Below are positions 2,500 through 63,030 of a DNA stretch of 64,000 nt, one piece after another. A program made the position numbers and the translations under genes. Position 1 is the first letter of the stretch; each line of letters begins with the position of its first letter. Where the stretch lies: NCBI GenBank assembly GCA_036172245.1, contig JAYWIR010000047.1:310001-374000 (forward strand), read 5' to 3'. A model generated the notes under the pieces. That model saw nothing but the letters and a program-made list of their open reading frames with translations, was not told the origin of the DNA and ran no database searches. This DNA is from Raillietiella orientalis (Eukaryota).

Positions 2500-3110
2500 C
2501 GAGAAACTTCGCTAGGGTTTCTCCGTCGTGGCGACGCGCCCGTGGTCTCCACGAGGGCGAAACCAGACTTGCCGCGTTGCTGCGGACTTGGTCATCGGTC
2601 CAACAGAGGAGCGAATGCCCTGACGAACGCGTCCCGACGAGTGACGATGGCCGGAATCCCGGTCCCGTTCCAGGACTACTTTCCACCTCGAGAGTTCCAC
2701 TCACAATCTCTCCGAGACCTCCCGACGGACGCAGGAGCCTCACGGAGTGCCGAGAAGGTGCGTGCGACTTCATTGCGCACGCGATGCTGCCTGGGATGCG
2801 GTCACTCGGTCCCGTTCTGCCGGGACCAGAAGCACAGCGAATGGTTCTTTTCTGAGTTTTCATCTCTGGGGATCAACGCAACGGAAAAAGACCTCTGGCT
2901 AATGCACCTGGAGAACACAGCGCGGGAGCCTCGGTACTGCGTGGTAGTCTTCACGTTGAAACGGAAACGCCAGCCCGAACCCTTCTTGAGTGCTCTGTGC
3001 AAAGAAGCAGAACTGGAAGACGCGGGAAGGTGCGCGGTGTTCCTCGCTCAGTGGTTTCACCAGCGGGCGCGCTGCGAGTACACCCGCGAGGCATTACCTC
3101 AGGGTGTACT
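2500..3110 (+). mobile_element. Decayed RTE-like LINE, APE endonuclease fragment
   Basis: GACDFIAHA at ~2757-2783 (cf. GDFNAHV), followed by degenerate RN.NG..L..F and IDY.L...W motifs. Confidence 0.45.
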
Positions 3111-3130
3111 CGTACCCTCTTAACCTTACG

Positions 3131-3430
3131 ACTCCATTTTCACAATCGGAAAGGAGACGACTCCTTGGTTCGTGGAAAGACCCCGGAGGTCTTGGGAGTC
3201 AACCAACTGGGAGTGGACCCGGAGGGTCAACATCCAATCCCAACGAAACTACGGAGACATCCGGTTTTCGGCTTGCACCAATGCTGCAGCACGCGAACCA
3301 ACCAGCGTCATCTTGTGGGGGGAGGAACGCCTGGTACCACGCGCCAAGATTGCAGCCTCACTACCGCCAACGCTGGAAAACCGATGGGACACCAGGATTG
3401 CCGTCGGTGCCAGAGATGGAAAGGGATTTT
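3131..3430 (-). mobile_element. tRNA-headed SINE family copy (head and body)
   Basis: Reverse complement contains TGGCACCGAC, CCCCACAAGATGACGCTGGTTGG, GCAAGCCGAAAACC and CCTCCGGGGTCTTTCCACGAACCAAGGA, collinear with the copies at 18.3, 22.5, 27.2 and 50.2 kb. Confidence 0.7.
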
Positions 3431-3779: not shown

Positions 3780-5640
3780 AGCCGACTGGATGGAGCTAGC
3801 AGTCGGTGCCTCTGCGTTCCTCACCATCTTGCGATCTTCAAGTGCTGCCCACCTCCTTGTTCCGTTTCCTACGAGACTTCGGAGTCCCTTCCGAAAATTT
3901 TCTGTTCGCACCCTCCGCATCGGCTGATACGGGTTCTTCTCAGACGTCACTGTCAGGAGTGCAAGAAGTGCGTGCGTTGCATACTCGCGGCACCATCACC
4001 TTCCCAAAGATGATGGTGCCGTCCAGTATCCAACACACGGCCGCAGAATCTGACAAGCACACCCTTCGGACAAACGAGGGCGACCTCCTACGTACCCGAG
4101 ACCACCATCTGCCTAAAGGTAGGTGGTGGTAGACCCGCGCGCAACGACGAAGCCCAAGCAAGCGGGCATGGCTTTCAGCGGGAACCTCCCGTTCCCGAGC
4201 CGCAGGGGTGCGAATACGAGTCTCAGAGTGAGACCGCCGGACATAGCCCCAACTTGGCGCCGGACGGCCCTCGTCCCCAGTTGAAATAGGGCTTTCGTTC
4301 AGAGCTCTGATCGTCCGCATTTCTTAGAGCTGCACGATCCATTGGATCGCCCATTTGGAAGAGGAAATTAAAGGCAAAAGTCCAGTCTGACCGCCCCCTC
4401 GCACTCCCCTTACTTGAAATACTTCCTAGGGACAGAAATCGCTTCCTCCATCCTGCAAGCATGAATCAGCTATCAAACGGTCACACGACCTTGCAGACAT
4501 GGTGGCCTTCTGTTCTCTTCCCGCCACAGCCGTTCCCCTGACGAAACTTCTGTGGGACTCCCGCATTCTCTCGTGGTTACTGGAGGGGAAAAGCAGTCCT
4601 TCCTCCTCGGTGTTTTGACTCTGCTGCTGGAAACTGGCGTTCCGAACGATCCCAGAAAATCCTTTGGACCACGGCTTCTTCCTCTTCGGCTGCTGCTGCT
4701 ACTTTTGCTTCTGTTTATGCTTCCTCTACTGTTGCTACTGCTATCTTCGCTGCTGTTTCTTTTGCTGCTTCTGCTGCCCTGTTCACCGAGCACTCATTCC
4801 CATGCTCCAAAAAGTCCCTTGGACCACGGCACTGATCTCGCGTTTGCTCGAATTGCGGAATCCCTGGAGAGAAATCATCGCACTATCGAACGGAGCACCC
4901 AGAAGCGATCAGGGGACGATGTACGCCTCGGCCCGGGGTGTCCTGCTCCCGACTGCCATCTCCGACCAGGCATGCCTGAACCAGTCTTTGTTCGCTTTGG
5001 CCGAAAGGTGGGCAGGCGGACACCACTACGATCCCTGTCTCCCCTGTCAACGAGAAGACAGGGATCGTGAGCACGTCGTAGAAACGCTGAAAACTCGGGC
5101 GTCACTGTTTCCTTCGCTTCATGGAAACAGGAGCTCCTTCAAGGATAACGGAAGGGAAGCAGCAGCTCACCAGGCTACGGAGCTGAGCGACTGGTCCCGC
5201 GCTTTGCTTCGCTCAGCAGCGTGCTGCACTCTTCTCATCTCTCGCAGATGGCGCATTTTGCTCCTGGCATCTCTCGAGGGGGGACGAGAAGGTTCCATGC
5301 ACGATCCGGGATCCTAGATGTGCGGAACCGGGAGAGGGAGACAACCGCTCTTGTGGGGCGCCAGTTAGGAAGCTGTTCAAGAGAGCCACTGGCAACCATT
5401 TGGCTCCTCTTCCTTCTCTGCAAGTCTTCCCGCATAAGGGTGCGCGTCCGAGGAGACCCTTCGAGATGGAGGGACGTCTCGGGTTCCAGCCGGGTGAGGA
5501 CCACAAATTTCCGATCCGGCAGGCGCGAGGAGACACCTCTCTCTCTTCTGCAGCTGTCTGCAGCTCGGCCGGAAAATCCGACAGGATTTTCTTTCCTACT
5601 CCTGTTCGCGTGAAATCATTCTGAGGAAACGGGACGCGGC
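3780..5640 (-). mobile_element. Decayed RTE-clade LINE (EN, RT and C-terminal fragments, internally deleted)
   Basis: Minus strand: IVVVSACPP (cf. IVSAYAPT) at ~5020, a GVR.G...L.FNFLF-like stretch at ~4350-4420, and KVMVPRVC / GLRSLVG at ~3870-4000 (cf. TK..VYRA.V..LLYG.E.W and CLR.IL). Confidence 0.6.
4681..4778. repeat. Degenerate (CTG/CTA/CTT)n trinucleotide microsatellite
   Basis: ctgctgctgctacttttgcttctg...ctactgttgctactgcta...ctgctg; produces the poly-Leu and poly-Ser ORFs in the track. Confidence 0.85.
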
Positions 5641-9689: not shown

Positions 9690-11160
9690 AAGACGAGCTC
9701 GCCATCCCAGCTCTGCAGGAGGGCGGGTTGCCAGGCGCTCAGCGTTCGCGCCAACGTGAGAGCGATCGATGGACTCCGTGGGCACACGGTGAGCAGCCAG
9801 ACGAACCCTGCGTGGCCCTGAGGGATAAGGAAGAAGTCCTCCTCCTCCTCTGGAATCATCTCCACCCCTCGTCTCCTGTCCCACAAAGCGGATGGCGCGC
9901 GGAGTCGCCGTTAAGGTCGCCGCCTCCGCGTGGTGCCTTTGCATGGCACAAGCGAGGGAGGGGAGAGCAAAAGGGGAAGGGGTGCCCGCTCCTTCGGTCG
10001 GCACACCTCGGTCTGCGCACCATGACTGCGGTGGAATCCGGGAGCGCCGATGGGAGACCTCGGACTCCCAGGAGTGAGGTCTTCAGGCCGGACTCCCCGC
10101 CTCCACTTCCGCGAAGGTCCGCCGTCAGCTCCCGAAAGCTCGAAGCCATGGGTGAATTGCCGGCTGCTGCATCCCGACCATCTCTCTTTTTACCCACCAA
10201 TCCTCCTCCTTCTCTCTCTCCTACTGCTTCTGTTGCTTTCAGTTCTTCTTCGTGTTCTCCTTCTTCTCCTGCCGCTGCTGTTCCTTCTTCTGCTGCTGCC
10301 AGCTGCTGCTCTGCAGCTGACGAGGGGTGGGTGCTCTGGTCGCGGAGCATCCACCCCCATGCTCCGGATGGAGCTCAGGGGAAATCCATGAATTCCGGGA
10401 GACGCTGCAGGGAACCCGGCGCGCTTACGAGAGCGCCCGCCGACGTGGGGCTTGGAGCAGCTGACGAGAAGGCCGAAGGAGAAAGGGGGTGGATAGGTAA
10501 AGGAAGCACCAGCCGACTCCTCTCCCCCCCTGACACGGTGGGGAGGGCAGACTGGGCGGATGTCGGATGGACGACGACCTCGCTCTGGGAGCCTGGTCGC
10601 GCCATGCCTAACTGCGTGCTGCAGAGGGCACGCGCGCGTGTGGACTTCAAGAAAGCGCGCTTCGCCGCCACTCGTAGGGCCCTCGCAGAAGATGGGCTGT
10701 GGCCATCCCCGGAGGCTTAGAATCGACTCTGGTCGTCATGGATTCCTTTACGCTAGGATCTCACTGGAGCACTTGCTGCTACCAGCAGGATCTGCGCTGA
10801 TGGCGGCTCTGGGCTAGTCAACGCCGTGACCTTTTCGCGCGCACCGTGGCTCCTCTCCCACTGCCCGGGGGACTGCTGCTCTCAAGAGCCACCTATCTTC
10901 CGGGCAGGTCGCCATGGCAGGCCGATCGCTTTCCGAGCGGATCCCCGCTTTCACAGTTGCCATCGTCCAGCTGCCCACGGCAACCAGCGCCTTTTCCCGG
11001 AATTCGCCGAGTGCGCCGCATCCCAGCGGCGTGCGTTTCGTCTCGCGCATCGCCAGGCCGGATCCAACATGGAGGCCGCAATTGGCTCCGGCCCACTTCG
11101 GCATTCCCTCAAAACTGGACGTCCTACCCATTTGACGCCGGAGCACGGATTGGGGTCATT
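9690..11160 (+). mobile_element. Decayed RTE-clade LINE (EN start and RT), internally deleted
   Basis: DELAIPALQEGGL at ~9692 (cf. DIAALQETRL), PGDCCSQEP at ~10865 (cf. KGD..C.NYR), ASQRRAFR (cf. ESQCGFR) and FGIPSKL at ~11097. Confidence 0.6.
10200..10320. repeat. Degenerate (CTT/CTC/CTG)n microsatellite
   Basis: tcctcctccttctctctctcctactgcttctgttgct...cttcttctgctgctgccagctgctgc. Confidence 0.8.
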
Positions 11161-13329
11161 TCGGCCCCGAGGATTTCCGGTCACCTGCTCAACTAGATGC
11201 GGCTTTTTTTTCCCTCTTCGATGATCGGTATCGACCCCGGAAAGGGATGAGGGTGGGGGGAAGAGGACTTCGGGGGGATCCAGAAGGGCCGGATCCACAC
11301 GCGCGCCGGGTCGCTATGCGTCTTGATCCTCGCCCCGGTCGGGAGGACGACGACTTTTTGCTCCGGTCCGTCTGACCGGCGACTCCCTCCGGAAGACCGC
11401 GCAAACGAAGGCAGAGCTCTCCCTGGAGCCAGCCTCCTGGGAGATCACGCCACAGCTGCCGCCGCCGTCCGCAACGCTCTTCGTGACGTCTGATCGTCCC
11501 GCAGCGACCGCAAGTCTCCCCAGTCGTCGCGGCGGTCCATCGCGAAGCACGCAGACCCCGATCTTCCGTCCACGCACCTCCTCCTGCAGGAGAGAGCCAA
11601 AAAAAGGAGAAAGGGAAGGAGCTGATGAAGACCGATAGGAAACGAGTGCGCCGGGGGTTCGCGACGAAAGCTGCAGACCCCTCCCCTCCCACCCTCCCCG
11701 TGAGCGGAAGAGCCCTCTCGAACCCTTCCTTGCGGTGTCCCGAGACGTTTCCGATGCGAACACGAGCTGCGAACGGCCCGTGCCGAGGAGTCTGAGGGAG
11801 AGAAGCCGAGTCGCTAAGGCGGGTGCGCCCCCCCCTGATCCGGATGGATCCCTCCTCTCCGGGCCGGCGTCGGCGGACGGACGGTCGTGCGCGGAAACCG
11901 GCGCACGAGGGCCCGGGATTCGTCCTGTCCTCTGCCGGACTCCTAGGGAGAAATTCGCGCGCGCCGCGGGCGGAGGTCAGGAGTGGACATTCCGCAGACG
12001 CCCGGTGGCATGCAGCAGAGAGGGACTTCCAGAGGGAGGATACGTCGGAGGTGAACGCAGGAGACGGGAGGATCCCCCACCCACCCATCCTCTTTCTCTT
12101 TGGAAGAGAGAGGGGCCCTGGAAACACTTGGGTGCTCGGCTACGTAAGCAGAAAAAAAGAAAAAAAATCTCGTCCTTTAGGACGCTAGTAGCACATGTGA
12201 GATTACATAAACACTTGCTTCGGTTCCACTGGAAACAGTTACAAATACATATTATGTAACATATGGCATTCAGGCAGTCCGCCATCAGCATACAACGGGG
12301 GATACGCCTCCGAGCCCTATGGCAGACGATATCCATGGATAAGAAACGCCACATGGATGGTGTTTACAGGATGCATCCACAAAGTTTCCGCAGCAGAATA
12401 TTTACTGGTTCAGTTTGGAGCAAGGAAAACCGAAAGCGATGAATTTATTTATTCAAATACCTGAAGCGTAAAGGTTCAAACGCTCGCGGAATCATCGCTG
12501 CCCTTCGACCAATCGGAACGGCTCGCGCGGGTCCGTCTCGCTCGCCGCCGAAAAGCGTACCTTATTGCGTCTGGTCGCCCACGAAAATTTGAATAAAAAA
12601 CGGGATCCGACCTACTTAAATCCCGTGTTCGCGTGCCTTTCGGAGGTAGCTGAGCAGGCTCCGCACTGCAAGCTGAAAATTCCACCCACGGCGTCGTACG
12701 AGGCTGATTTATCGCGTGGCACGAAGGCTGTCACCATCTCCCCGTCGCGTTGCAAGGCGGGACCCGAGCTGAAGCGGGGGGCTCCCCCGTGTTTGCATTG
12801 CATCTGGCATGAGATGTAGCCTGAGCGATGGCGCCATCCTTGGGCTGTTAAAAAGGCACGCTCTCGCCCACGAGAGCGCAGGAGTACCGACTGGGGCCTT
12901 CCTCAGCAGAGCCGTGCGGTAGTGAAAAAGGCTAAGGTAGAATCGGGGTATAAAATGAAAAAAAAATGAAAAGATGTAGCCTGCTAGAATTATTTGAAAT
13001 TGAGCGGAGAGGTTGGAATGATTTGGAGTTTCCCTTCTGACGTCACCACGGCTGCGCCATTCTCCTTTACCGGGAGCATTCCTTCGCTTGGTGTGCGGAA
13101 AAAAACGATCCCCCAACGAAATTCCCGTGCACTTCTATGCAAACGCGCTCTCGCAGTTTCCGTCAAACCATCCTGGGTACCACCCATTTTCACCCAAGCT
13201 CCCCACCTCCACCCCCAATTCCACCTTCCCCCCCTTCCCCAGTATTTCATGAAGAGGGTCCCCTCCTTACAACAAACCTGGGAATCTTTTTTTTTTTTTG
13301 ATTCCCTTCCGAGCGTCCCGAAACACCGT

Positions 13330-16744: not shown

Positions 16745-16950
16745 GCCTTTCCCGGTTCAGGACCTTCTCCAGCTCTCTCACACCCTGGTTGTCTCCGAAG
16801 GGGACCCCGGAGGGAACCACCCCTTCCCCATTCTCTCTGGAGGGTAGGACCGCTCTTCACTTCTTCACCGGAGAGATCTCCCGGAAGGGATTCGCTCTCT
16901 GTTTCTTCCTCTCAAGAGAACCCCGAAGGGACGCTTCTTGTTTTCCCTAA
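16745..16950 (-). repeat. UNCG-hairpin array module of the SINE family (partial copy)
   Basis: + strand ACCCTGGTTGTCTCCGAAGGGGACCCCGGAGGGAA and ACCCCGAAGGGACG are the reverse complement of GGAGACAACCAGGG and CCC-TTCG-GGG units seen at 27.5-27.8 and 62.7-63.0 kb. Confidence 0.7.
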
Positions 16951-18319
16951 AGGGAGCAGCGCGCTTCGTATACTCTGGAGAGGCAAAGCCTCCAGGGTGT
17001 GTTGACCATGGAGGACTGCACCTTGGAAGGCTATCAGAAGGAGAGGAGTGAAGGAGGCATTTCGCTTCGTGGTTTCTGTGGTGCTGCATTTTTCAGCTCC
17101 TGGCGAGATGCCCCGAGACGTTGGCTTCCATTCGTCGGCGGAATCCTCGCGCGTGCGACCTCCGAGCGCTCCAGCTCACCATCCCGCAAGCGCCGGCCGT
17201 CAGATGCAGGCAGGTCGCAGCGGGCTCTTCAAACTTGAGGGGGGTGGGGTGGCCGTGCACACGGAGAAAATGGCGAGCTGCGCTTCCCTGGAGCGCCTGC
17301 TTCCGTTCGCATGGCAACCCAAGCGGCGCGCGCTCGTTCGTCTGCCTCGCCTTGCAGAAATCTCCGAGGCTTCCGCGCGCTCCCCGCGCGGGGGCGGAGC
17401 TGCGGTCCTCTCCATCCTCTCCCCCTTCCTACCGTCAGAGTTCCACCCTTCCACCAACTGCCCCCCCATCCGTCCTCAAGAGAAGGAGAGGGCACCTCTC
17501 TCCGCGGACGGGAAACTCTCTCCTCGAGTGGCCCTTCCCCGTGGGGACGTTGGGGGAAGAGGTCTCCATGGCCCAGCTGCCAGCGGATCGATTTGGCGCT
17601 TTTGCTTCTTGGAGAGCTCGAGAGCTGCGCAGAGAAGACCCCCGAAGCGGAGCCTAGAGGTTCCAGACGGCCTGTGGAATTCGCCGCACGCGGCGGCGGA
17701 TCGCAAAATGGAGTCTTGCCCCCCCTTCTTCCCCTTCCGATTCCGGCGCTTCCCTGTACCGCAGAGCGGAAGCTGCGCACGCGTCGCTCTTCCCTCGGTC
17801 GCCCTTCCCACGCTCACCGTCGACGCTGCGCGTCGGGAACCGGGCGCCGTCGGAACCTTTCGAGCGCCGCCGTCCCCCGGTGTGCCCAGTCTCCGTCCCC
17901 GAAGCAGAGGCCTGGAATTTTCCAAGAGCACGTGATCTCCCGGACGGAATAAGTTTTTTTTTTTCTTTTCTTTTTTCTCCTCGTAGGGAACGAAATTACT
18001 TAGCCAGTCGGGACGAGGCATGGAAACTCTTGATCTGGATCCATCCCCCCGTGCTGCATCTGTCGAGGAAAATCACCCTCGCAACGGACGCCCCCGTCAT
18101 GGACTCCGCAGCATCGCGTCGCCGCGAGTAGGGACGGATCGAAACTCGGAGCGGGACACGCCGCTAGGGGGCGAAGGCCGACCGACCGCTCATCTGCGGT
18201 GGGAACCCACGCTGCGCCGCGAGGGGTGCGTCACGTTGGGAGGATCCATTTGAGACCCCCCTTGCTTGGCGGACCCGGGAACGCCGGGTCCTGAAGATCT
18301 GCCGGAAAGCCGAAGCGCA

Positions 18320-18605
18320 AGCATTAGCGGCGGCTGCGCGGTCCTGAGCATAGGCACCGACCGTTGAGGATTCGAATCCCTCCCGGTGCGAAAGATCAAC
18401 TCCGAGGAATGGGAGGGAGAGGGGGATGCGTCGTGTGGGTTTCAAGTCACCCCCGCAAGGTGGCGCTGAGTGATTTTGGGACCCCGGGATTATCTCGCTG
18501 CTTCTCGGCTGGTTCCGGATGCGGCACTGGTGGAAGGAGGATGCTCCCGCTGACTGGCCGGTAAAGGTGGCCCTCCTGAGTCCTTCCAGGACATCAAGGA
18601 GAAAC
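18320..18605 (+). mobile_element. tRNA-headed SINE family copy (head and body)
   Basis: GGCACCGACCGTTGAGGATTCGAATCCC (B-box), GCGTCGTGTGGGTT, CCGCAAGGTGGCGCTG and GTCCTTCCAGGACATCAAGGA, shared with the other copies. Confidence 0.75.
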
Positions 18606-18699
18606 AGGAGAACCCAAAGTGCTCCATGGGCTTCACGAACCCCCGCTTCCTCCCATCCCAAAAGGGAACCGCTTCGTCGTAGGTGCAGCCCATGGAATC

Positions 18700-19700: not shown

Positions 19701-22464
19701 CGGGTCACCGGTTACTCGGAAAGGGGAGGATTGGGAGGGGGAGGGGAGCGACGTTTTCCGAGGGCCGTGGAGCAGATGTAGTCTACAACAGCCGATCCGC
19801 GAGAGTGGTAGAGACCACCTCCTCCCCTCCTCGTGCACTCGGAAGGGAGCGCGGAAGAGGTGGATCCGTCCACAGCCCGCGGTGCAGGAAGGTGCGAAAG
19901 CGCCTCGCCGTAGGGTGAGAGGGGCTCTTCCAGCGTCTCCGAAGATGCCGCGTGGCGCGCGCGCGTCCAACATCCCTCCCTCCCTCTGAAGGTGGGGAAT
20001 CCTCGCCTGCCTCTTCGGAAGACGCCAGCTCGAAGCATCGCTTGCAACGCTGCTTGCGCGGAGGCGGTGGCCGCCGGCGAGGTGACCCGTGGAGTTCCCG
20101 TGATGCGGTGGGGAGGAAAAGTATCTCTCCCGCTTCCCGTTCCCTTCCCGGATACGCGGCCGCCGCCGCTTCGCTCCGAAGGCGCGCGCGCCCAGGGGGC
20201 TGCTCCCGGGACCCGATGAACCGGAACGTCAGAGGGGGGAGGAGGCTTTGAGGCCGCGCCGTCGCCGGGGCGACCGGCGATCGCGAGGGGCGCAGCTCTC
20301 CCCGCGTCCTGTAATTATCTCGGTCGCCGGTCGCAAACGAGGGCGTTCCGGTGGCGTTCAGAACGCGACCGGAGGAGATTCGAATTCCGCGCGCCATCCC
20401 GGGCCCTTGCTCCGGGAACGGCGGCGTTTGAGCTCCTGATTTGCCATCCGTCGGCGTCCCTCCAGCATTCATTAGCGAGCTCTCCGGAAGGACTCCCCCA
20501 TGCCGAACGCGTGTCAGCTCGGCTTCGTTGGCATGCAACGCGCGCTCCACCTTCGTCACCGAGCAACCTCCGGAGACGAGGCATTTGCATCTCCTTTTTC
20601 GCTCAAATAGAAAAGAGGAGAAAATCGCCTGCCGTGAGTAAATAACTTTTTCTAAAAGAGCTGCAAGCCTCTAATTTAGACTTAGTGGCAAAGCTGGAAA
20701 AGGCGACGAAACGCTTTCTATAAGAGTGGAAGGAGAGGGAAAAGCGATTTTTTCCCCATCCCGCCGCGCCAAACCCGACGCGCCCTGTGTTTTCAGATCG
20801 CATTGTTGGCCGCCATGCTGATCGAGAACGCTGACGTCATCGCTGCGAGTCGGACTCGAGAGGCGTGCCCGTTCTGAGCACTTCGCGGCGAGTGCGTCCC
20901 GTGCGCGTGCCACCTCGCGTTCCCTCCAGCGCGCCTGCGGAGGAGGCCGCGGACCCGCTGCCCGGCAGAAGAGGGGCAGCAGCAGCGTGCCTTGCACCCG
21001 ACCCCCGGGCCTTCGAAGGAAGAGAGCGGATTCTCCCCCACCCCCACCCCCCATCCTGCTGCCAGATTCGGGAATTCCTCCGGAAATCCGAACGTGTGCT
21101 CTCCCCGTGATTCGATTTGCGATGAGATTTCCGGTACGGTGGAGGCTGCAGGAAGGCCAGCAAAAATATTTACCGCCGCGAAATGTGCAGAATTAACGAA
21201 ATAAGAAGTTTCCCGAGCTGGACTCAGATCGGATTATCAGGGATGCGATTCGATTTCGCGAACGGCGTGAATCGGTTATTGGATTTTCGGGAATCCAGAC
21301 CTCCGAAAGTCCGGCTTCCCCGAGCGGGAAAGCGGATCCGACGCTCTAAGGAGCAGGGAAGCAGGAAGGACCTCCACCCGCTTCCCTGGATGCCGATGAA
21401 GACGGCCCCGGGTCGCGAACCGCCGCGCAGAGCGCAATCCGTCGTCGGGAAGCGAAGGCAACGAGACGGCCTCTGTCCTCCAGGTAGGAGGGTCGCGCGA
21501 CTTCCCGGAACTGGAGAAACCGTAAGGGAGAAGAGGAAGGAGAAGGCGCGGCGTCGAGAGGGAGAGGGGAGGGGGGAGGGTCATCGACTGCTGAGGTTGC
21601 TCTTCGCAAAAGACAATCAGACCGGCACCAACGTGGGACGGCGAAGTGGTCCGAAGGAGCCCGTTGGCATGCGGAAGGTCGAGTTTGCTCCAGGATCGTC
21701 CAGGCGGAGGGACGGTCCTCGTGGGTGTGGTTTTTGTTTTTTTTCCCTTCGAAATAGGTTCGCTTTCTTGGCGCTGCTGGCAGCAGCGTTGCCGCCTGCC
21801 GGTGCCGGGAGCTGCGCGCGACCGCGGCACCATCGCCAATGAAGTCGCCGTCAGTGCCGATTTGCCGCACGGCGGCCGGTGTGCCCGGCTCCCCCCGGAA
21901 GTGAACCTCTCCGCCTCCCTGGCAACGGGTCCGTTTCCGCCAGTTCGTCCTCCGGCGAGCGATCGGTCCCACGCAACCTTGAGGGGCTCCGAACCACGGA
22001 GGGCCGGCGTGGCCCGAACCTGGAACCAGGCTTTCCTCCCTCGCGATAGGACAGACTACATCGCCACTCGCGCCTCCCCGCGATCCTCTTCCGAGAAGAA
22101 AAACACACGGTCCATCATCCTGCTGCCAAAGATCCGGAAGGAAAGGATCGATCTTCAGCCAGGGTAGCAAAACACTCATGCCCTCCTATGCAGGCCAATC
22201 TCATCGGCACACACTCCGCATCCATCGAAGATACGCTTCATCATCATCGCACGCTCTTGTCGAGTCAGATGGGGACCTGCGAAGGGATCGATCGGGAGCC
22301 GCCTTGGCGCTTCCCCGACGATCCATTCTGGACGCGCGTCGAGCCAAAGACGAGGTCTGCTCGGTGGCGGCGGCTCGCTGACAGAGCGTGGTGGCTCGCT
22401 CGAAGGGTCGCCGCTCCAGCGAGGAGCATCTTCTCGCCTTCGCGGTCCACGTCTGCGCCGCATC

Positions 22465-23045
22465 AAAGCTCCTTGTTGGCACCGTCCGTCGCCGGTTCGA
22501 ATACCTCCCGGAGCGAAGCATCTACGCCGAGAAATGGGGGGCACGTCGTGTGGGTTCCGAGTTCCTCCCCCGCAAGGTGGCGCTGGTTGGTCCCTCGGTT
22601 GGCTTTGGGTGCGGCACCGTGGAACGTGGGTGCCCTCGTTGACTGGCCGGAATTGGAAGTCGATCCCCCGGGGTCCTTCCAGGACATCAAGGAACCTTTC
22701 GGTGTTCCCCCCTCCGGTTGTGCAAACGAACCCGTCCCTACCCCCTACCCCACTCGGATCGATACCACTCCAGAGTGTGAAGAAGCGCGCTGCTCCCTCC
22801 GGGAGTGACCCTCCAGAGGAAATGGGAAGCGTCCTTTCGTGGTTCTCTTCAGAGGAGGAGGAAGCGAGAAGCGGATCCTTCCGGGAGGTCCCTCCGGAGA
22901 AGAAGCAAGGCGTGATCCTACATTTAAAGTCTTCCAGGAGGCAACCAGGGCGGGGGTTCCCTTCGGGGTTATCCCTCCCAAGCGTGAGAAGAATGGACGC
23001 CTTCCTCCGGAGCCTTCCTGGACTCACAGGGTAGTCCCTCTGGAT
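22465..23045 (+). mobile_element. Near-complete composite SINE copy (tRNA head, CTCF-like body, hairpin array)
   Basis: TGGCACCGTCCGTCGCCGGTTCGAATACC, CCGCAAGGTGGCGCTGGTTGG and GGTCCTTCCAGGACATCAAGGA, then the linker TTCCCCCTCCGGTTG and the array with GGATCCTTCCGGGAGGTCC, CCCTTCGGGG and CCTTCCTGGAC. Confidence 0.75.
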
Positions 23046-23859
23046 AGAAGAAGGAAGGGGTTCTCCTCGCGGTTCTCTCCCGTACGTAGCGTTGTCCCGC
23101 CAAGCGCCCACTCGGCACGGATCCCGAAATTCCTGAACCCCGGATGTCGCAACACGCGTTCGAACTGCACGCCGAAATGGCAGCGGCAGATCCGCACCCG
23201 GGGCCTCCCACCGTTCTCCCCTCACGGGATGCCTGCGTCCTGAGTTTCGCTGCCGTTCCACTGGGGGGAGGGTCAAGGGAGGGAGGAGCGATCGCCGCGA
23301 TGCCTGGACGCTTTCCAGACGGCAGAGCGCGCGTGGGGACGGGGAGCAAGGGCAGGGCCGTCCAGAGGGATGCGCGAGGAGTTTCCGGAGGCTTTCGTCG
23401 CGGATTCTCAAGGAGGAGGCCGCGCCTAACCTCAGGAAGAGGAGGTCGTCCCGGGGCGCGACTCGGGAGCGCGTCCAGCCCAACCCCCCTCCGCCGCGAA
23501 GACCGCGGAAGCGGCGGGCAAAGAGCAAGGCAGAGCACCGACTGGGGGGAGAGGATCTCCCCCCAAGCATCTCTGCTTCCGCCCAGACAGTGCGGCCTCG
23601 AACTGCTTCGGGCGGAAGCCGAAGGGCGAAGGAGTCCGCTGCTTCCGCCCGTGCATGACGCGAAGGAAGGGCGGCGGCGGCGGCGACCACGAGAAAGCCG
23701 CCCGCTTCACCTACGTGGGAGCGAGCGAGGAGGCCCATCGAACCTTCCCGTAAATCCTTGCGCAGAGGACCCACGCGATGACGGAACGGTTCTTTTCCAT
23801 CCTGTCCCCTTGCTCAGTTGCCGAAAGTTCGTGGGGGAGGGGGGGGGGATCACACCGTG

Positions 23860-26850: not shown

Positions 26851-27149
26851 GGAACGGAACGGAAATCCGATTGAAGCCCCATCAAGTGGAGCGCCCTTTG
26901 AAGTTCGGCTTGCGGGCTGGAGGTCGTGGATTCCTCCATCCACAAATTAACCGTCGGTGGCCCCACCGGCGGGGAAGACTCGCATCTGCTTCCACGTATT
27001 TTTCGCGGGCAGGGAAGCAGGAAGCTGGAAATCGCAACCATCTCCTCCCGAATGAAACCAGGAGGACGTCCCGAATTTTTTTTATTCGCGCATTAGTCCG
27101 GAAGATCCCAGGAGCGACTTCCCAACCCTTTGGACATGACGTCTTACTC

Positions 27150-27810
27150 GGTCCGCGTTGGCGTCAGTCGTGTGGCTGAGGAGGGCCCCAGACGCTGCGG
27201 GTTCGAATCTCCACGTGGAGGTTCGGCTCCGAGAATGAGGGGTGCGTCCTCCCGCTCCGTCTCCCCCCTCCCATCCCCTCAGGACGACGCTAGCTGGCCT
27301 ACGGGCTTCGGGTGCGTTGCTCGTGCAAGCCGGAAACCCCCGGATGCCCCGCTGGCCAACAGGGGTCCTTTCAGGAATCAAGGAGCTGGTTTCCTTCGGC
27401 ATTTCCCTCCAGTTGCGATAATGGGGCCATCTCCTCTTCCGAGGGAAGGGGGACCTTTCATCATGGAGCCGGCTGATGACCCTCTCGAGGGGGATCGCTT
27501 CTCCAGAGGGTGAAAACAGTTTCTATGAGGGAGCACCCTTCGAGGTTCTCTTTAGAGGAGGAAAACAAGGAGCGGATCCTTTCCGGGGAGTCCCTCCGGA
27601 GAAGAAATGAGGAGCAACTCATTATCTCTGGAGGTTCTCCCTGGGAGGATAAGGAAGAGGGAATTCCCTCCGGGGTCTCCTTAGGAGACAACCAGGGCGA
27701 GTGTTCCCTACGGGGATCTTTCCCAAGCGCGCGAGAGGAACGGATTCCTTCCTCCGGAGTCCTTCCTGGATTCCACAGGGAGTTCCCCTCCGGGATCACC
27801 CCCCCATAAC
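27150..27810 (+). mobile_element. Near-complete composite SINE copy (tRNA head, body, hairpin array)
   Basis: A-box-like AGTCGTGTGG, B-box GGGTTCGAATCTC at ~27199 and body CCTCAGGACGACGCTAGCTGGCCTACGGGCTTCGGGTG...GGTCCTTTCAGGAATCAAGGA. Stem-loops follow with loops at 27539 (TTCG), 27582 (TCCG), 27669 (TCCG), 27709 (TACG), 27753 and 27789 (TCCG). Confidence 0.8.
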
Positions 27811-30800
27811 TTGGAGAGCTGACACTCACCCTCGGGTGGCGTGGACAGCGCTTGAGGGCTTCGCGAGTTCCCTTCCAAGTTTCCCCTCCATTTTTTGATT
27901 CCCGAGTACTCAGCGAATCAAAAAATCTCCTTCTAAGTGGGGGCCTTTCCGTTAACTCTGAAGGCACCTGAAGTGGACTGAACTGCCGAATGGAGGGGTT
28001 CTTCCCTCATTCTCGCTTACAGATGATACATTTGCATTGATCTCTTGTACAAGAAACTTGAACTCTTTTCCCCTCTCTTGTTTCTGCGCGGTCGTATCCT
28101 CCCCGGCATCCCGGGCTCGGAAATTCCTCCAGCTCCAGCATTGCCCGTTGCGACGTCGATCTGCGAGGGGTCCCCCCTTGCCGCCGCCTTTCCCTTCTTT
28201 CCCCCCTCTCTCCCGGAAGTCGCCAGGAAACGTTCCGAAAGCGCGCGCGCGCACGTCCTTCCCTGGGTCTCGTTCGCGGAGGTTCCTTCAACTCCTCGTC
28301 GGGAAGCCGCCAAGGTCCACGGGGCGAAGTTCCGCTGACGAGCAGCAGTGGAGGCTGCTACTGCTCGGACCGCGCGCATTGCGGCCAAACCAATGAAGAT
28401 TTGAACAGTTTTAAGGGGGAAAAAAATACCCTTATAATGGAATTCCCGAAGACCGCGGACCATTTTCCTGATCTTCGAAGTACCAGTCGGTGTTTTCATC
28501 GGGATCACTGCCATCGCTCTCACCACGGGAGGGTCTGGTCGCCTTTCACCTCTTGTCGGACTACGAGATGCTAGGCGTGCGTCAGATCGTGGCAACCGAA
28601 GATTAAATAAACACCTCGACGCCCCACTTCACGGTTTCTACGTCGCTCGAGATCATTCCGATGAGCGACGGGAGGGGTGTGAAACACGCGAGGTTCTGCA
28701 GTGTCGTCCCTCTGCAGAGATCGGTATGGATGAGATATGGAAACGTACGTTTGGAACAGAGCCAGGCAGACCCCCAATTCCGAAAAGGGATGGAGGAAGA
28801 GCGCTCCATTCTGGCTGTGCCTTTGGAGAGCAGGAAAACGTCGTCAACGGGATGCACGCACGCAGCGCAGCGCAGCAAGCGAATTTACTACCCCAGCCAT
28901 CGCACGTACTTCCCGTTCTGATTGAAAGAAGAAGTAAATAATTGAAGCAAACGGAGAGCGAAATTTGACGGGGGGAAGACGCGTTCCCCCCCTCCGCCCC
29001 CGTTATGCGACGGAGCGGCGGGCAATCAGTAACGTTCGTTTCCTGACATCTACAGGCCGGATCGAGATTTATGCCGTGACGCAACACGGCGCGCGCGCTC
29101 ACCGCGCCGCACGGCGCGCTCATCGCAAGTGCCGCTCCTCCTCCGTTTGGTCAACTTTTTTTTTTTTTTTTCCTCTCCTCCTCCTTCTTTTTTTCTTTCC
29201 CCCCCCCCGCCACCGTGCTGGATGCAACGAACATAATGGTGTGCATGCACACACACACCATCCCTCTCCGATAAAGCATCAAGTTTTACTTTCGGGAGCC
29301 GAGATGGAATGGTGGGAAACTGCAATAACCGCGACGAGAAGAGGGGGCGCTTCCTTGGAAACATCTGCACGCGTCGTTCGCAAAGAATTCCATGTATGCA
29401 TCTCTCGAGCTGCCAAAATCTCAAATATACAGAAATATGTATTGGCGAACGTCATGCAGTTTTTTTTTTTCTTCCATCGTCTTTCTCGAGAGAGACGAAT
29501 ATCTAACTTGATATTTTTTTTAAAAAAAAAAAAAACCGGGAGGCTTTCCGATTATCCACGTTCGCGCGCTCTCATTCCAAAAATTATTTATGCCATTTGC
29601 GTGCTCGTAGGCCCGCATGCACATTCTGACCCTTAGGGGCGCACATTTCACTTTGCATTCGATTCGGGAGAGGAGCCATTTCGAAACGCGCGCCTTTCCT
29701 CTTCTTCCTCCTCTTCTCCCCTTCGTGCAAGAAGAGGCTCCATGGAAAATCATCAGAGGTTCGGGAAAATTCTGCGGCCCTTCCTGTGCAGCACCATGGA
29801 GAGGCAGCAGCGGTGCTCGCAGTGATGGTCTCGGTTCGAGAAACATCCCGCAACCACCGGGGTGTTCTTGATCCAGGAGGCGTTCCCGAAGCGGAGGTCA
29901 GCACGGAGCCCGGCACACGCCGCCGGCGGCCTCGAACGTTCTAAAAGCTGCAAAGGAAAGAGAAACGCTGGTTCGAGGGAGCGCTTCCGCTTTCGGGAAG
30001 CAGGGAGCGTTCCAGCCAGGAGTGAAAGTTTTCCGGGATGAGGAAGGGTGCGCGGGTTTCGTGGGAATAAGGCTCACTGCTCGTCTCCCTATCTGGAGTG
30101 GTAGGGACGGGTGCGTGCGTGTTTCCCGAGTCCGGGACGGGAGCGGTTTCCCGGGAGCCCTTCGCACGAAGGATCTCCCGAAATATTCGACCGGCTTCTC
30201 CGGGGAAGCGCCAAACCCGCGGTTCCTTCCTCCCGAGCTCGGAATTCTTCTGCGCACGGGGAAAAAACCGAGCAAGCTCAAACGTAAGATGGAAACGGCG
30301 CGCTAGAGGGGGGAGAGAAAGAAAGAAAGAAGAAAAAATTAGATTCCTAAAATTATGAGGCAGAAAGATTTTTGCATGTAATAGACTTGTTATGACATTT
30401 CGAATATGATGTTTCAACCATTAAAATCATGATTTTCGTGTGTCCCCGGGTTGGATGCAACAGGTGTTATAATATTTAATGGGGAGAGACGTTCTGCGAA
30501 CAGCTGCAATTCATTGATATCAGGGAAGTGCATCTGCTTAGAAGTAAAGCGCAGCTAATGTTTGTGATTCTGCAGAGTACGCTTCGAGGATCCGAACGCC
30601 AGGACATCTGATCAGAGCTCGGAGCTTCGAAGATTAAATAAATATGAAATATTTATATTGTGGGCCTCGAGCCACGAACCGTCCCTTCTATAACAAATGG
30701 CTTTTCTCCCTGCACACCCTGGATCGCTTCTCTCAGAATCCAGGGTCCAGGATGCTGGCAAGCGCATGGGAAAGAGACGCTGCACACCAAAAGGGAATTG

Positions 30801-40460: not shown

Positions 40461-40575
40461 GGTTAGGATAGGGTAGCTTAGATTAGGGTAGGGTAGGGCA
40501 GGTGAGGTTAGGTTAGAGTAGGGTAGGTTAATTTAAGGTGGAGTGGGATCGGTTAGGTTAGGATAGGGTAGGGTA
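40461..40575 (+). repeat. Degenerate (TTAGG/GTAGG/ATAGG)n interstitial telomere-like pentamer tract
   Basis: ggttaggatagggtagcttagattagggtagggtaggg...ggttaggttagagtagggtaggtt...ggttaggttaggatagggtagggta. Confidence 0.8.
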
Positions 40576-46340: not shown

Positions 46341-46475
46341 CACTCGAGGGAGTTGTGTGATCCCATCCTCGGGCCCCCATCCTTCCCTCACTCCCCAGTA
46401 AAACTTTTCCTCTTGTTTTTCTCTGTTTGCTTCTTTCTCGTTTTTTCCGGTTTTCCCTTTCCCTTCGCTGAGTGA
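46341..46475 (+). repeat. ~135-bp direct repeat, copy 1
   Basis: CACTCGAGGGAGTTGTGTGATCCCATCC...CCCTTCGCTGAGTGA, repeated at 47125-47258 with about ten differences. Confidence 0.95.
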
Positions 46476-47124: not shown

Positions 47125-47258
47125 CACTCGAGAGAGTTGTGTGATCCCATCCCCGATCCCCATCCCTTCCTCACTCCCCAGTAAAACTTTTCCTCTCGTT
47201 TTTCTCTGTTTGTTTCTTTTTCTTTTTTTCCGGTTTTCCCTTTCCCTTCGCTGAGTGA
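47125..47258 (+). repeat. ~135-bp direct repeat, copy 2
   Basis: Collinear match to 46341-46475. Confidence 0.95.
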
Positions 47259-48569: not shown

Positions 48570-48930
48570 AGATGCCATCTGGATCCACTGCTCAACTCTG
48601 CATCTTTTCGCGTCTTCTGTTTGCCTTTTGCTGGGGGACGCCTTTGCAGACGTGACCTCGGCAAGGCACGTGGCAAGAAGTTCCCGGTGCCTCACCTGTT
48701 TTCGGCCTCTTTGGAGGTTCCCCTGTGGAGCTCGTGGGGAAAAGCTGGCTCTGGATCGCCGCTCTTTGATTGCCCATTCCTCGAATGCACAGCTCGTCGG
48801 AAGGACTGTCGTTGGGCTGTGACGTCGGAAGCAGACGAAGAAGCGAAGAACTTCGTGGTACGTCGGTTGCCAATGGATGCGGAGAAGACGCGCAGTTCTT
48901 AATATCCCAAGAGCTGCTGCGCGCATGGGG
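48570..48930 (-). mobile_element. RTE C-terminal remnant
   Basis: LLRIHWQPTYHEVL and GNLQRGRKQVRHRELLATCL (cf. IL.I.WQD...N.EVL and GEL..G.R..G.Q.KRFKD.LK..L). Confidence 0.7.
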
Positions 48931-48994
48931 GCTCACCCAACTCTTTGACTACTGTTCTACGTCAACCGAAGGTACGTGTCACTCTTCAAGATAA

Positions 48995-49165
48995 GGGGCA
49001 CCCTGGGAAGGGACCACCCTATGAATCCAGGAATGGCTCCGCAGAAGGGAGTCTGGGGAGCGGTCTCCGAAGGAAACCTCCACCCTGGTTGTCTCCGAAG
49101 CGAACTTCGAAGAAATTCCTCTTCCCAATTTTCTCCTGAGGGACCCCCGGAGGGGTCCGCTCCAT
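48995..49165 (-). repeat. UNCG-hairpin array module of the SINE family (3' part)
   Basis: CCCTATGAATCCAGGAA, CACCCTGGTTGTCTCCGAAG and the perfect stem GGACCCC-CGGA-GGGGTCC (49141-49158; UCCG loop on the minus strand). Confidence 0.75.
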
Positions 49166-49199
49166 TTTTCCTGAAAGTTCTTAGTGTGCCTCTCAGCCA

Positions 49200-50185
49200 C
49201 TTGACCACGAACAGAACTGCCAAGCAGACGCGGAGTCCAGCAGGGCAGCACGATGTCTGCGAACGGTCGCAGCACCCCTAGAAAGCAGGGGACGCCTTCG
49301 GAACCATCCAGAGGAATCCTTGCCTTGGACTTACCCCAAGCAACGAGAAACTTCCGCGGATGGACATGATCTGATGCTCGTGGCGGCGTTTGTCTTGCGT
49401 CATCTCGTGCCGGACCCGCCCCAGTTCGATTCTGGCTTTTCCGAATGCACGAGCTCTTCAATGAGCTGCTGGAGGTTCCTGGAGCATCACCCGTGGTGCA
49501 GAAGCTCGCGTCGTGCGGTGCGTCCCGCAGCCGCGTCGCATCCTTGATTCGATCCCCAGAAACGGAGGATGGGATGTCGTGATCCTCTTTGGCGGCAAAC
49601 CACCAAGTTCCACGTCTTTAGAGGGCTCTTCGGGGCAACCGCCACAGGTTTGGACGCCGGGAGTGTAGCCACCCGGCCTCAGCTTGTGCGGCTGCGAAGA
49701 TTTCCGTGAGATCCAAATCCGCAGCAACCGCAGCATTCCCGGCTGAGAGGTACTGACTCCGATCGCCGTGGCCACCGAGCGAAGTTTGATAAGCCACCTT
49801 GGGTCTTAGCTTCGCCAAACAGTTGCCTTGGTTCAGAGGAATCCCTGGATCTCCGTCTTCCCCGCGAACTGGGCCACCTGGTTGCAAGAGTCAGTTCCCT
49901 CATGGGGAAAGATCTCGAGGCGGAACCACGCCTGCCTGCGGAACAGCAGGCACGCCCGTTAGTTGTCGAGGAAATCCTGGAGAACACCAGGAATCTGCTG
50001 TTGGCTTTGTCCACCCTCCTTGCTCCAGTGGCACCCATCCTGCTGGAAGCAAGGGGCAGCAATCTTCCAGCAAGGTGGGAGAAGTGACGTGCACAGGCTT
50101 GGACGCCGGGAATATGACCACCTGGCCGCAGCTCGTGCGGTCTCAAAGATTTCCGTGAGATCCAAACTCGCAGCAACCACAGAAT
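49200..50185 (-). mobile_element. L1/Tx1-like post-RT fragment with an internal 94-bp duplication
   Basis: Minus strand AKTQGGL (cf. PK..GGLG). 49643-49736 and 50092-50185 are diverged direct copies. Confidence 0.5.
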
Positions 50186-50495
50186 GGCCCACGATGGTGG
50201 TCGTGTGGCTGCGGGGTCTCCGCACATGGCACCGACCGTCGCGGGTTCGAATCCCGCCTGGGGAAGGGTCGATGCCGAGAAATGGAGGGTGCGTTGTGGG
50301 TTCCTGGTCACCCCATCGCCCCTCAGGATGACGTTGGTTGGCCTACGGGCTTCGGGTGAGGCACTGTTGAAAGCCGGAAACCCCTGGGCGTCCCCGTCGA
50401 CTGACCGGGACTGGAAGCTGGTCCTCCAGGGTCCTTCCAGGAACTAAGGAGCGCCAGTTTCTTCTCTGGTTTCCCCTCCGGTTGCGAAAAAGGAG
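50186..50495 (+). mobile_element. tRNA-headed SINE family copy (best-preserved head)
   Basis: A-box-like TGGTCGTGTGG, TGGCACCGACCGTCGC and B-box GGGTTCGAATCCC at ~50243. Body CCTCAGGATGACGTTGGTTGGCCTACGGGCTTCGGGTG...GGTCCTTCCAGGAACTAAGGA, then linker TTTCCCCTCCGGTTGCGA. Confidence 0.8.
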
Positions 50496-50639
50496 AAAGG
50501 GAGCCGCGTACTATGCAGCATGCCGACACCCCCGTAGGGGGCTGCTTCTCCAGAATGCAAGAAGCGCGCCGATCGCTCGGGGGAGCACCCTTCCGAATGG
50601 TTCCGCTGCATGTTCCTGACCGCTGACCATTCCGGATGC

Positions 50640-60900: not shown

Positions 60901-62490
60901 TGTTCCCTTCGAGTCCTCACGGACCCCCGGAAAGGATTTTAAAAAAAAGGAAAAAAAAATCCTTGGACGCTATGTCAGAAGGAACAGGGACCCCGAGAGT
61001 GGGGGAGCGAGAAGATCCGCTCCCGGCCGCCCGTTCCCCTGCCGGGAGGGACGGAAAGGAAACGTTCCATGGTTCCCCCTGGATCCCTGTCCAGGGGAAG
61101 ACCGCGACCCTAGGAGAAGAGACGGATGGAGAGAGCTGGAGGCCTGGACGACCTCGGCGGCGGATGCTCGGCGCAACCTCCGACCTGCGTAGCAACGGAG
61201 CGGGGGACGATGCTTGACAGACTTCCTGTCCGTGCCTGGGTTTTCCGGGAACCCCGGGAACAGAAAGACCGCCCTGAGAGACGGAGGTCGCGTGAAGGGA
61301 GCAGCAGAACATTTCGGAAACTGCGCCCTCGAGGGGATCCTACGCAATGCTGGGGTTCTTGGGGTCCATCGGTCCTCCTCCCTTTTTGGCGGGAAAGGCA
61401 ATTCTGGAGGTTCGGCCTTCCTGCGTGCCTTTCGAGCTTCCCCTGCTCCTTCCTCCTCAGACCCCAGCGATATAGATTGCGCGCGCTCCTCCGCAGAGGG
61501 TTCCTTTGCGAGCGGCTCCGTCCCATGGCCTCAGGGAGGAGCCACTGCCGTCCTTTCTGGCGACCCCTCGGCAAGGAAGGGTGGGGGAGGAAGGCGGAGC
61601 ATCGGTTTCTCATGGATCTCCCTTAGGAGATCGCACCAGGCCGATAAAGCGGAGGGGATCTCCCAGTTCTCTCCCTGCAGAGCGCCTGCTGCTACCGACA
61701 CGGCTGTCGATTAGCGGAGCCTACGAGGAGTCGGGTGACCCTCCCCTTTGACCCCCAATACGGATGGATGCTGAATACGCTGCTATCGAGGTCGCTCTTT
61801 CGCCCTCACTCTGGGATCCAGGGACGTCTGAGTTCGTCTGAGTGACCTGCGCTTTCGGCGGCCCTTCTCTTCCACAGAGGCTGTTGGGCGATGCTCTCGG
61901 AAGGGATTCCCTCTCGCCGTCGTGCCGCCGGTGGGCGACGGCGACAGGTGACCAGCTAGGCTGCGACACCAATGGGTGCAGCATGCATTTTCGTGGGAAG
62001 GAAGGGGTCTGCCTTCCTGGTGTCTCTCTTGAAAGGCAAAGGGCGCGCATTCGAAGGAACGATAGAAACCCCGGAACATCCCTTCGTGGCCGGCTATCCA
62101 GACAAGAGGCATCCCGGTCCAGGGCAGAGCTTCCCTGTGTCCAGGGAAGCTCTGCCCTGGACCTGCAAAGGTTGCCCATCACAGGCAGCCTTTGCAGGTT
62201 TTCATAGGAATGGGAAGGACTCTCGTTGCTCCCGACTGCCTCCTTGTGCCCCTCTTCCGTGTATCTTGCAACGTCGGAGGGAAGACGGTCGTCGGAAGAG
62301 GCGAGGCACCCATGAGATGGCGCAGCCCTTCTTTCTCTTCTTTCACCTGTTCCCCCTCCACGAGGCTCTCCCATGAATCTCCGCCGCATCGTAAACTTGG
62401 ATGCTGGGAAAGGGGGATGAGCGAAGGCTGGGCGCGAGCCGAGGAGGCCGGTGCTCGGAGGCCGCTCCATCCCGCGCGCCATCTTGTTCC
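57950..62490 (-). mobile_element. Near full-length, very decayed L1/Tx1-like element
   Basis: Minus strand order: putative ORF1 (62.5-61.8 kb), EN-like NLY at ~61470, LLLKGAGPSILWRPLEN at ~60090 (cf. L.PK.G.....WRPI.L.N), post-RT region, and a degenerate C..C..LEHL knuckle at ~58110-58145. Confidence 0.5.
62116..62199. repeat. Two adjacent inverted repeats (22-bp perfect stem; 16-bp stem with one G-T pair)
   Basis: GGTCCAGGGCAGAGCTTCCCTG-TGTC-CAGGGAAGCTCTGCCCTGGACC (62116-62163) and ACCTGCAAAGGTTGCC-CATCACA-GGCAGCCTTTGCAGGT (62161-62199). Confidence 0.95.
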
Positions 62491-62559
62491 CCCTCCGGTC
62501 GTGCAACGGAGAGCGGACCCCCATCACCGGGGGACCACTTCCGCTTTCAAGATGGAGCA

Positions 62560-63030
62560 GGAGCCTTCACGGGCATCTCTCCAGTTGTTCAAAGGAGCGG
62601 ACCCTCCCCTTTGCGGGGGGGACCCTCTGAGTCGTCGCCTCTTCTCAGAGTGCAAGGAAGCAAGCGAGAGCGATTCCCTGCGGGAAGCTGCAGCGCCCCT
62701 TCTGAGTTTCGGAAACATCCCTTCGGGGTTTCCTTCAGAGGAGTGAACAGGAGCGGTTCTCTTGCGGCTTCCCTCCGGAGAAGAAATTCCTACAAGCGGA
62801 TCCTTTCCGGGTTCCCTTCGGAGAAGTTGAAACGGAGAGGATCACCCCCCTCCCAGGGAGTGTCCCTCCGGAGAGAATGAGGAAGGTTATTCCCTTCGGG
62901 GTTCCCCTTCGGAGACAACCAGGGTGGAAGGTGCGATCCCCCCGTCCGGGGGGAATCCCTCCCCAAGCATGAGAGGAACGGACTCCAAGCCCTTCCTGGA
63001 TTCATAGGTCGCACCTCCATCCCGGGGTGC
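62560..63030 (+). mobile_element. 5'-truncated composite SINE copy (linker and UNCG-hairpin array)
   Basis: Linker GGCATCTCTCCAGTTG. Loops TGCG (62679), TTCG (62722), TGCG (62763), TCCG (62806), TTCG (62895) and TCCG (62945). Landmarks GGAGACAACCAGGG and CCTTCCTGGATTC. Confidence 0.75.

Follow-up and report, generated by a model that had tools for sequence, protein, structure and literature searches.

A 64,000-nt stretch of the genome of Raillietiella orientalis (assembly GCA_036172245.1, contig JAYWIR010000047.1, positions 310,001 to 374,000; hereafter the window, in which all positions are given) contains eight related segments, dispersed over both strands, that are collinear pieces of a single composite, non-coding element consisting of a head, a body, a periodic domain rich in C-TNCG-G cores and a unique 3' region. 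The reading that we favour, with moderate confidence, is that a non-autonomous retroposon about 0.8 kb long, of the short interspersed element (SINE) type, inserted here eight times long ago and that the copies have since decayed. A first-pass annotation of the same DNA had described a tRNA-headed SINE of about 650 nt that ends in an array of UNCG-tetraloop stem-loops. The family, its composite make-up and the recurrent cores all reappear in the present analysis, but the tRNA origin of the head, the terminal position of the array and the hairpins do not.

Eight collinear copies of one dispersed element

The window was searched by nhmmer with a single-sequence query (27150-27830) and with a reciprocal query (22450-23080), followed by two profile iterations. 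The first query matched 22479-23040 (+, E 8e-33), 50195-50594 (+, E 8e-29), 17050-16777 (-, E 6e-23), 62794-63016 and 62545-62787 (both +, E 1.5e-17 and 2.5e-8, respectively), 49167-48974 (-, E 3e-15) and 3325-3106 (-, E 6e-5), and the reciprocal query added 18350-18660 (+, E 1e-27). Coordinates and column ranges remained stable through the profile iterations and agree with the single-sequence searches; the profile match of the second long copy reaches E 2e-119. All eight segments listed in the first-pass annotation were thus recovered at the positions that it had assigned to them. The copies, named here by position, and the parts of the fullest one are as follows (columns are those of the family profile).

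27148-27937, +: c27, the fullest copy; profile match 27165-27826 (columns 2-654), extended in the 5' and 3' directions
~27148-27262, +: head of c27, with the A-box-like TGGCTGAGGAG at 27173 and the B-box/T-loop GGTTCGAATCT at 27200
~27263-27465, +: body of c27
~27466-27826, +: periodic core domain of c27
27907-27925, +: TACTCAGCGAATC and A6 in the unique 3' region of c27
22475-23040, +: c22, the second long copy (columns 17-618), lacking ~1.5 units of the array and the 3'-terminal segment
50180-50594, +: c50, head, body and first array unit; profile match 50199-50594 (columns 2-377)
18349-18602, +: c18, head and first part of the body (columns 17-221)
16777-17078, -: c16, fragment running from body to array (columns 207-536)
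62544-63250, +: c62, 5'-truncated copy; profile match 62544-63052 (columns 203-651), in which columns ~405-443 occur twice owing to additional array units
63158-63176, +: TACTTAGCGAACC and A8 in the 3' region of c62, followed by a degenerate A-rich stretch
48904-49175, -: c49, 3' fragment; match 48976-49175 (columns 430-651) plus ~70-110 nt of the unique 3' region, without an A run
3090-3328, -: c03, body fragment (columns 103-305)

The two long copies, c27 and c22, are collinear from the head through the array, and in the column alignment the module junctions are bridged by the fragments c50, c16, c62 and c03. Because the profile ranges of the copies overlap in this way, the modules have one fixed order, as the first-pass annotation had proposed for a composite, dispersed, non-coding element. 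The flanks of the copies are unrelated. In a self-comparison of the whole window by BLAST (E<=1e-8), seven of the ten pairs found belong to this family. Pairwise identity between copies is only 60-88%, and therefore all of them must be old. The number of array units differs among copies, with extra units in c62 and about 1.5 fewer in c22, which is what would be expected of a tandem-repeat module. A possible ninth copy, very decayed, lies at 62000-62209 (weak profile match, E 0.049, array columns 403-610) and adjoins a 22-nt two-copy tandem repeat at 62117-62159.

No coding capacity was detected: none of the 308 stop-free open reading frames of at least 110 aa in the window (95 + 150 + 63) contains a Pfam family, and 3-periodicity is absent over every copy. 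A protein search with the 288-aa open reading frame that spans c22, aimed at mis-annotated copies, yielded 3,068 candidates, none of them at E<=0.001. Searches for the family elsewhere used a 20-mer that three of the copies contain without mismatch, and they yielded chance matches only: two loci in metagenome contigs, neither of them homologous to the family profile, and one locus in prokaryote genome contigs, in a betaproteobacterial metagenome-assembled genome, again with no homology to the family; viral contigs gave no matches.

Polymerase III-like signals and the ends of the element

The case for a SINE-type retroposon starts from the head. A B-box/T-loop motif, GGTTCGAAT, with a flanking T-stem stands at the same alignment column in all four heads, so that the Pol III-like (RNA polymerase III) box noted in the first-pass annotation is indeed a feature of the family. 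The best T-arm is the perfect GCGGG-TTCGAAT-CCCGC of c50, and the T-stem shows one double, compensatory change (GCGGG/CCCGC in c50 vs GAGGA/CCCTC in c18). Upstream of the B-box motif lies the A-box-like TGGCTG(A/C)GG; the spacing between the two is ~39-45 nt in three of the four heads and 27 nt in c27. Boxes A and B are an indication, not proof, of a SINE, according to SINEBase (Vassetzky & Kramerov 2013, PMC3531059).

The second line of evidence is the scarcity of potential Pol III terminators. Over 3,388 nt, the sense strand of the eight copies contains a single run of four or more T (T4+) vs 10 runs of four or more A, the background expectation being 11.3 for each; in first-order Markov simulations of the copies, T4+ runs averaged 10.0, and none of the 2,000 simulations had as few as one. 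Exact TTT triplets occur 29 times on the same strand. Strand-specific avoidance of terminators, which in c27 extends over ~730 nt (27148-27880), is what would be predicted for a retroposon transcribed by Pol III.

The boundaries of the element are also consistent with this reading. Four copies share a 5' boundary, starting at profile columns 2, 2, 17 and 17 in c27, c50, c22 and c18, respectively: c27 and c50 align from ~27148 and ~50180, c22 and c18 join them ~20 nt later, and the upstream flanks are unrelated. At the other end, c27, c62 and c49 continue to align for ~70-110 nt past the last array unit (...GACAC, then ACCYTCGG..CGTGG), these short pieces having nhmmer E values of 0.003-0.05. 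Beyond them, c27 and c62 share TACTYAGCGAAYC (BLAST E 0.003, with collinear offsets) before an A run, A6 in c27 (27907-27925) and A8 in c62 (63158-63176), the latter going on as a degenerate A-rich stretch of ~80 nt. Thus, two of the three copies that reach the 3' end have an A-rich terminus. The array, which had been thought to form the end of the element in place of the usual poly-A tail, is internal, with ~110 nt of unique sequence after it; the fullest copy, at ~27148-27937, is ~770-790 nt long, and the earlier estimate of ~650 nt should be raised to ~790 nt.

If the retroposon reading is correct, the transcript, which we infer to be a Pol III product, would have run through the T4-free body, and the reverse transcriptase of a partner long interspersed element (LINE) would have copied it into new sites starting from the 3' region and the A-rich end, leaving copies in either orientation, some of them full-length, some truncated at the 5' end and some eroded later. 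The unique 3' region may mimic that of the partner LINE. The middle of ~300 nt would be a quasi-oligomeric body, in which a ~41-nt unit with two CYTYCGGRG cores was presumably duplicated in the master gene, in tandem and partly in inverted order.

Several results weigh against this reading. ARAGORN at default settings finds no tRNA genes in the window or in the head consensus, and its low-threshold matches (24 in the window at ps85, 183 at ps75) are noise; the Rfam tRNA model aligns with the head only over positions 46-63, that is, 18 nt of the T-arm, at 14.6 bits (E 4.2), below the gathering score of 29, and the Rfam search at E<=10 yields neither 5S nor 7SL RNA. The description of the element as tRNA-headed is not supported by these results. 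The bare B-box motif GGTTCGAATCC, with up to two mismatches, is not enriched in the window (28 occurrences vs 27.2 in shuffles). The T4 statistic overstates the evidence because the eight copies are related, and c27 taken alone has no T4+ runs vs 2.25 expected, a result with a probability of 0.095. No target-site duplications of at least 8 nt were found at c27 or c62, both old copies; c49, which reaches the 3' region, has no A run, and its one candidate duplication, matching in 10 of 11 positions, is reached by 1.5% of shuffles and has its 5' copy ~50 nt outside the profile match, the putative head remnant between the two not being significant. The Pfam scan of the open reading frames shows no partner LINE or reverse-transcriptase domain in the window. 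Finally, with its ~770-790 nt the element exceeds in length all 175 families that SINEBase listed in 2012, which span 75-662 nt without the tail (PMC3531059).

The strongest competitor is another kind of non-autonomous mobile element, namely a Pol II composite retroposon with a variable number of tandem repeats (VNTR) in the manner of SVA, a short derivative of a LINE 3' end, or a relic of a DNA transposon, with the B-box-like motif being incidental. Such an origin appears unlikely to us, though more probable than the other alternatives. It would fit the lack of a tRNA match by ARAGORN or Rfam, the chance-level frequency of the bare B-box motif, the length beyond the SINEBase 2012 range, and the internal GC-rich, VNTR-like repeat domain with its variable unit number. 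It might also draw on the near coincidence of the starts of c16 and c62 (columns 207 and 203), but nothing is shared upstream of these two copies and therefore nothing suggests a longer parent, which rules out a common parent sequence there. A Pol II or DNA element, moreover, gives no reason for a T4 depletion that is confined to the sense strand, and the retention of the B-box/T-arm at one column in four of four heads and the 5' boundary common to four copies also speak against it. Terminal inverted repeats are absent from the self-comparisons, which counts against the DNA-transposon variant and rules out a miniature inverted-repeat transposable element or any other element defined by terminal inverted repeats.

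Much less probable still is that the segments are no transposable element at all but derive from a cellular long non-coding RNA gene, as pseudogenes or dispersed duplicates, or are ordinary segmental debris. The lack of proven target-site duplications and the age of all copies, at 60-88% identity, would be compatible with such an origin. However, the 64 kb contain eight copies, some on each strand, whose flanks are unrelated and whose boundaries are sharp and common to several of them; this is the pattern of an interspersed repeat, and the A-rich 3' ends of two copies point the same way.

With regard to the A runs, several in the window lie between short inverted repeats: TTTTTTGATTC...GAATCAAAAAA at the 3' end of c27 (27890-27926), GGGAATC-A13-GATTCCC near 13294 (13281-13307, -) and CGAAT-A8-TTCG near 27077 (27071-27092, -). 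The motif GCGAAYMAAAAAA, with at most one mismatch, occurs five times in the window vs 0.44 expected. These bracketed A runs may be the 3' ends of further, heavily truncated copies.

The periodic middle domain and its TNCG cores

The domain between the body and the 3' region is marked by the core C-TNCG-G, of which there are 24 in the 1,452 nt of arrays, or 16.5 per kb vs 1.9 per kb elsewhere (~9-fold enrichment). The loops are TCCG (12), TTCG (9), TGCG (2) and TACG (1), that is, all four named in the first-pass annotation, and the recurrence of the cores reported there is confirmed. In the family consensus, cores stand at columns 419/432, 464/476, 504/516, 544 and 586, which amounts to two per ~41-42 nt; one type reads YCCC-TYCG-GGG, and the other, YCC-TYCG-GAGA, contains the palindrome CTCCGGAG. 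In the raw sequences the periodicity is weak: spacing between cores is irregular, from 12 to 95 nt, the autocorrelation at lags of 42, 84 and 126 barely attains the 95% level of shuffles in c27 and c22 and stays below it in c16, c62 and c49, and Tandem Repeats Finder reports none of the arrays. A coding repeat is ruled out by the irregular spacing and by the lack of 3-periodicity over the arrays.

When the array is compared with its own profile, matches appear on the opposite strand as well (E 1e-33 to 1e-37); the symmetry is centred near 27615, and around this point a ~75-nt hairpin (27576-27650) is formed by two adjoining units of c27. An Rfam microRNA match to this hairpin (mir-3199, 29 bits vs a gathering score of 100) is below threshold and was taken as spurious, the hairpin being the generic long one that adjacent units form.

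On a reading that follows the first-pass annotation, the element would give rise to a long Pol III RNA the 3' part of which is a selected scaffold of 6-8 UNCG hairpins that might serve, for example, RNA stability or multivalent protein binding. The core C-U-N-C-G-G of c(UNCG)g tetraloop hairpins is certainly there, 24 times and mostly with UCCG and UUCG loops, and its ~9-fold enrichment comes with a strand asymmetry that would suit an RNA structure, the reverse complement occurring only six times in the arrays (24 vs 6). Within the core, the N position deviates from the consensus more often than its neighbours (in 0.28 of cells, gaps ignored, whereas U, C and G do so in 0.09-0.16 and the closing C and G in 0.06-0.07), as would be expected under selection for the loop; several flanking positions, however, deviate at 0.23-0.35, so that N stands out among the core positions but varies no more than several of those around it. 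Compared with the other array columns, the C, T, C, G and G columns of the core are no more conserved (identity to consensus 0.769 vs 0.751, P 0.42), and the constraint on the loop predicted by the scaffold model is accordingly not apparent.

The proposed stems are not supported either. In the c(UNCG)g register, the only pairs in the eight GGG-type cores are the three of CCC/GGG, position 4 pairing in two of the eight and being mostly T.T; in 10 of the 12 GA-type cores, a C.A mismatch occupies position 2. Among the 89 TNCG sites in the eight copies, at least three contiguous pairs are found at 16, at least four at 8 and at least five at 3. The proposed stem consensus GGAYCCC/GGGRTCC has essentially one instance, the perfect 7-bp hairpin GGACCCC-TCCG-GGGGTCC at 49151-49158 in c49, which is the sole full one among the 24 array cores and, taken by itself, a point in favour of the scaffold; elsewhere, the pairing is limited to CCC/GGG. 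When the 7-bp stems were imposed on the alignment of the five array copies and compared with 500 shuffles, 56.5% of the cells paired vs a shuffled mean of 56.3% (261 of the 500 shuffles being as high), and the covariation score was 0.105 vs 0.097 (146 of 500 as high), values that come from five decayed copies and hence from tests of low power. Sliding the 3' partner by -1 or -2 gave better pairing than the proposed register, 64.0% and 59.5%, respectively.

The folding energies do not agree with one another. In a first calculation, c27 folds better than its shuffles and does so preferentially on the sense strand (z -3.45 vs -1.49 antisense), with z -2.33 for c62 and -0.35 for c22. A second calculation, on the arrays, gave -3.27 for c27, +0.1 for c22, +1.7 for c16, -0.73 for c62 and -1.07 for c49, vs a mean of -0.16 (standard deviation 1.29, minimum -4.3) for 30 background segments; four of the five arrays are therefore near background, with no folding excess over shuffles. 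For the family consensus, neither strand folds better than the other (z -2.96 and -3.51), which points to palindromy at the DNA level rather than to structure specific to the RNA strand.

Beyond the core motif itself, nothing positive is left for UNCG hairpins: helices are of 3 bp or absent, covariation is at the level of shuffles, the U, C and G positions show no extra conservation, folding has no strand preference, and the array is not a tail. The hairpin-like look comes from junctions of pyrimidine runs with purine runs and from short palindromes, not from selected, UNCG-capped RNA stems. We thus consider a scaffold of 6-8 selected hairpins in a long Pol III RNA the least probable of the alternatives, and assign equally little credence to a looser variant, in which C-UYCG-G cores spaced at ~41 nt in the RNA of a ~0.8-kb Pol III retroposon are selected as a multivalent array of capped hairpins or protein-binding sites. 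Were the cores selected, they could contribute to RNA survival or to the recruitment of proteins of the partner LINE, the body would be of a type not described before in SINEs, and decay of the eight old copies would hide stems that young master copies have kept.

Relation to known elements and the rest of the window

Retroposons with degenerate or variable internal repeats are known among SINEs and beyond them, and the best parallels for the present family are tRNA-related SINEs. According to SINEBase, a SINE is an interspersed, non-tandem repeat of less than 1 kb with at least 60% identity to tRNA, 5S or 7SL RNA over at least 60 nt (PMC3531059). By this description, the family resembles tRNA-related SINEs in being shorter than 1 kb, non-coding and interspersed in both orientations, in having copies that differ by internal deletions and duplications, and in consisting of a head that carries B-box/T-arm and A-box-like motifs at the 5' end, a body and an A-rich 3' end. 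The near absence of T4 runs from the sense strand (1 in 3,388 nt) is a further likeness. It differs from them in its length beyond the 2012 range and in its head, where the tRNA likeness detected covers 18 nt vs the at least 60 nt required. We call the family SINE-like, rather than a proven member of the class, because only the first of three SINEBase criteria, a length below 1 kb with an interspersed distribution, describes what was found.

The CHRS/CHR-2 SINE family of cetartiodactyls offers a precedent for the middle domain. It is described in SINEBase as a "quasioligomer" of a degenerate ~20-nt motif repeated more than 10 times in tandem (PMC3531059). As in that case, the body of the present element consists of a degenerate short tandem repeat with a unit number that varies between variants, but the unit is ~41 nt long with two CYTYCGGRG cores and is present in ~7-8 units, a comparison that is made by description only. 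Among the papers listed, as judged by titles or the beginnings of abstracts, no SINE with a tetraloop array is described, and a search for tRNA-derived SINEs with "internal tandem repeats" found none.

Outside SINEs proper, the hominoid-specific SVA carries an Alu-like 5' part and is not known to show a Pol III-type avoidance of T4. The VNTR composites of hominoids, SVA, LAVA, PVA and FVA (PMC4432496, PMC3287187), are like the present family in being non-autonomous and in having a GC-rich central domain of variable tandem repeats flanked by unrelated modules on the 5' and 3' sides; they are mobilised in trans by a LINE and end in poly-A. The likeness is one of functional analogy, not of membership.

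All things considered, the family is an element of an ordinary kind, probably a SINE that is new or has at least gone unrecognised, although it may already have been described. The family opens no new question. The sole unusual claim made for it, that of a UNCG scaffold in place of the tail, is not borne out. If the SINE reading is correct, it is the commonest recognisable repeat in the window, with eight copies covering ~5% of the 64 kb, and would be a useful marker family for the annotation of an otherwise featureless, GC-rich, gene-poor stretch; with ~0.8 kb and a quasi-oligomeric body, it would stand at the long end of known SINEs.

The window itself is 59% G+C (range 50-71%), with CpG at expectation (observed/expected ratio 0.96), TpA strongly depleted (0.43) and dinucleotide ratios of 1.27 for GA/TC and 0.75 for AC/GT. 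Rfam finds nothing in it at the gathering score, and codon-like 3-periodicity is confined to 4441-5041 and 9961-10561, both of which translate to low-complexity sequence with no Pfam family. The window thus has the look of gene-poor DNA from a GC-rich eukaryote in which CpG has not decayed. A CTG-rich tandem repeat of 42/15 nt lies at 4678-4769, inside the first of these two segments.

Twice in the window, an array fragment on the minus strand is found 1.0-1.3 kb upstream of a head fragment on the plus strand (16777-18602 and 48976-50594). The DNA between the two fragments is unrelated in the two cases; this rules out a larger element behind the layout, which is taken as a coincidence. A direct repeat of 94 nt with 83% identity (49643-49736 and 50092-50185) ends just upstream of the head of c50. 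Another direct repeat, of 135 nt with 92% identity (46341-46475 and 47125-47258), is unrelated to the SINE-like family and is the youngest duplication in the window. An inverted repeat of ~90 nt with 80% identity is located at 59781-59870 and 60362-60452, and a degenerate interstitial telomere-like array of ~110 nt, composed of TTAGGG, TAGGG and TTAGG variants, at 40461-40575.

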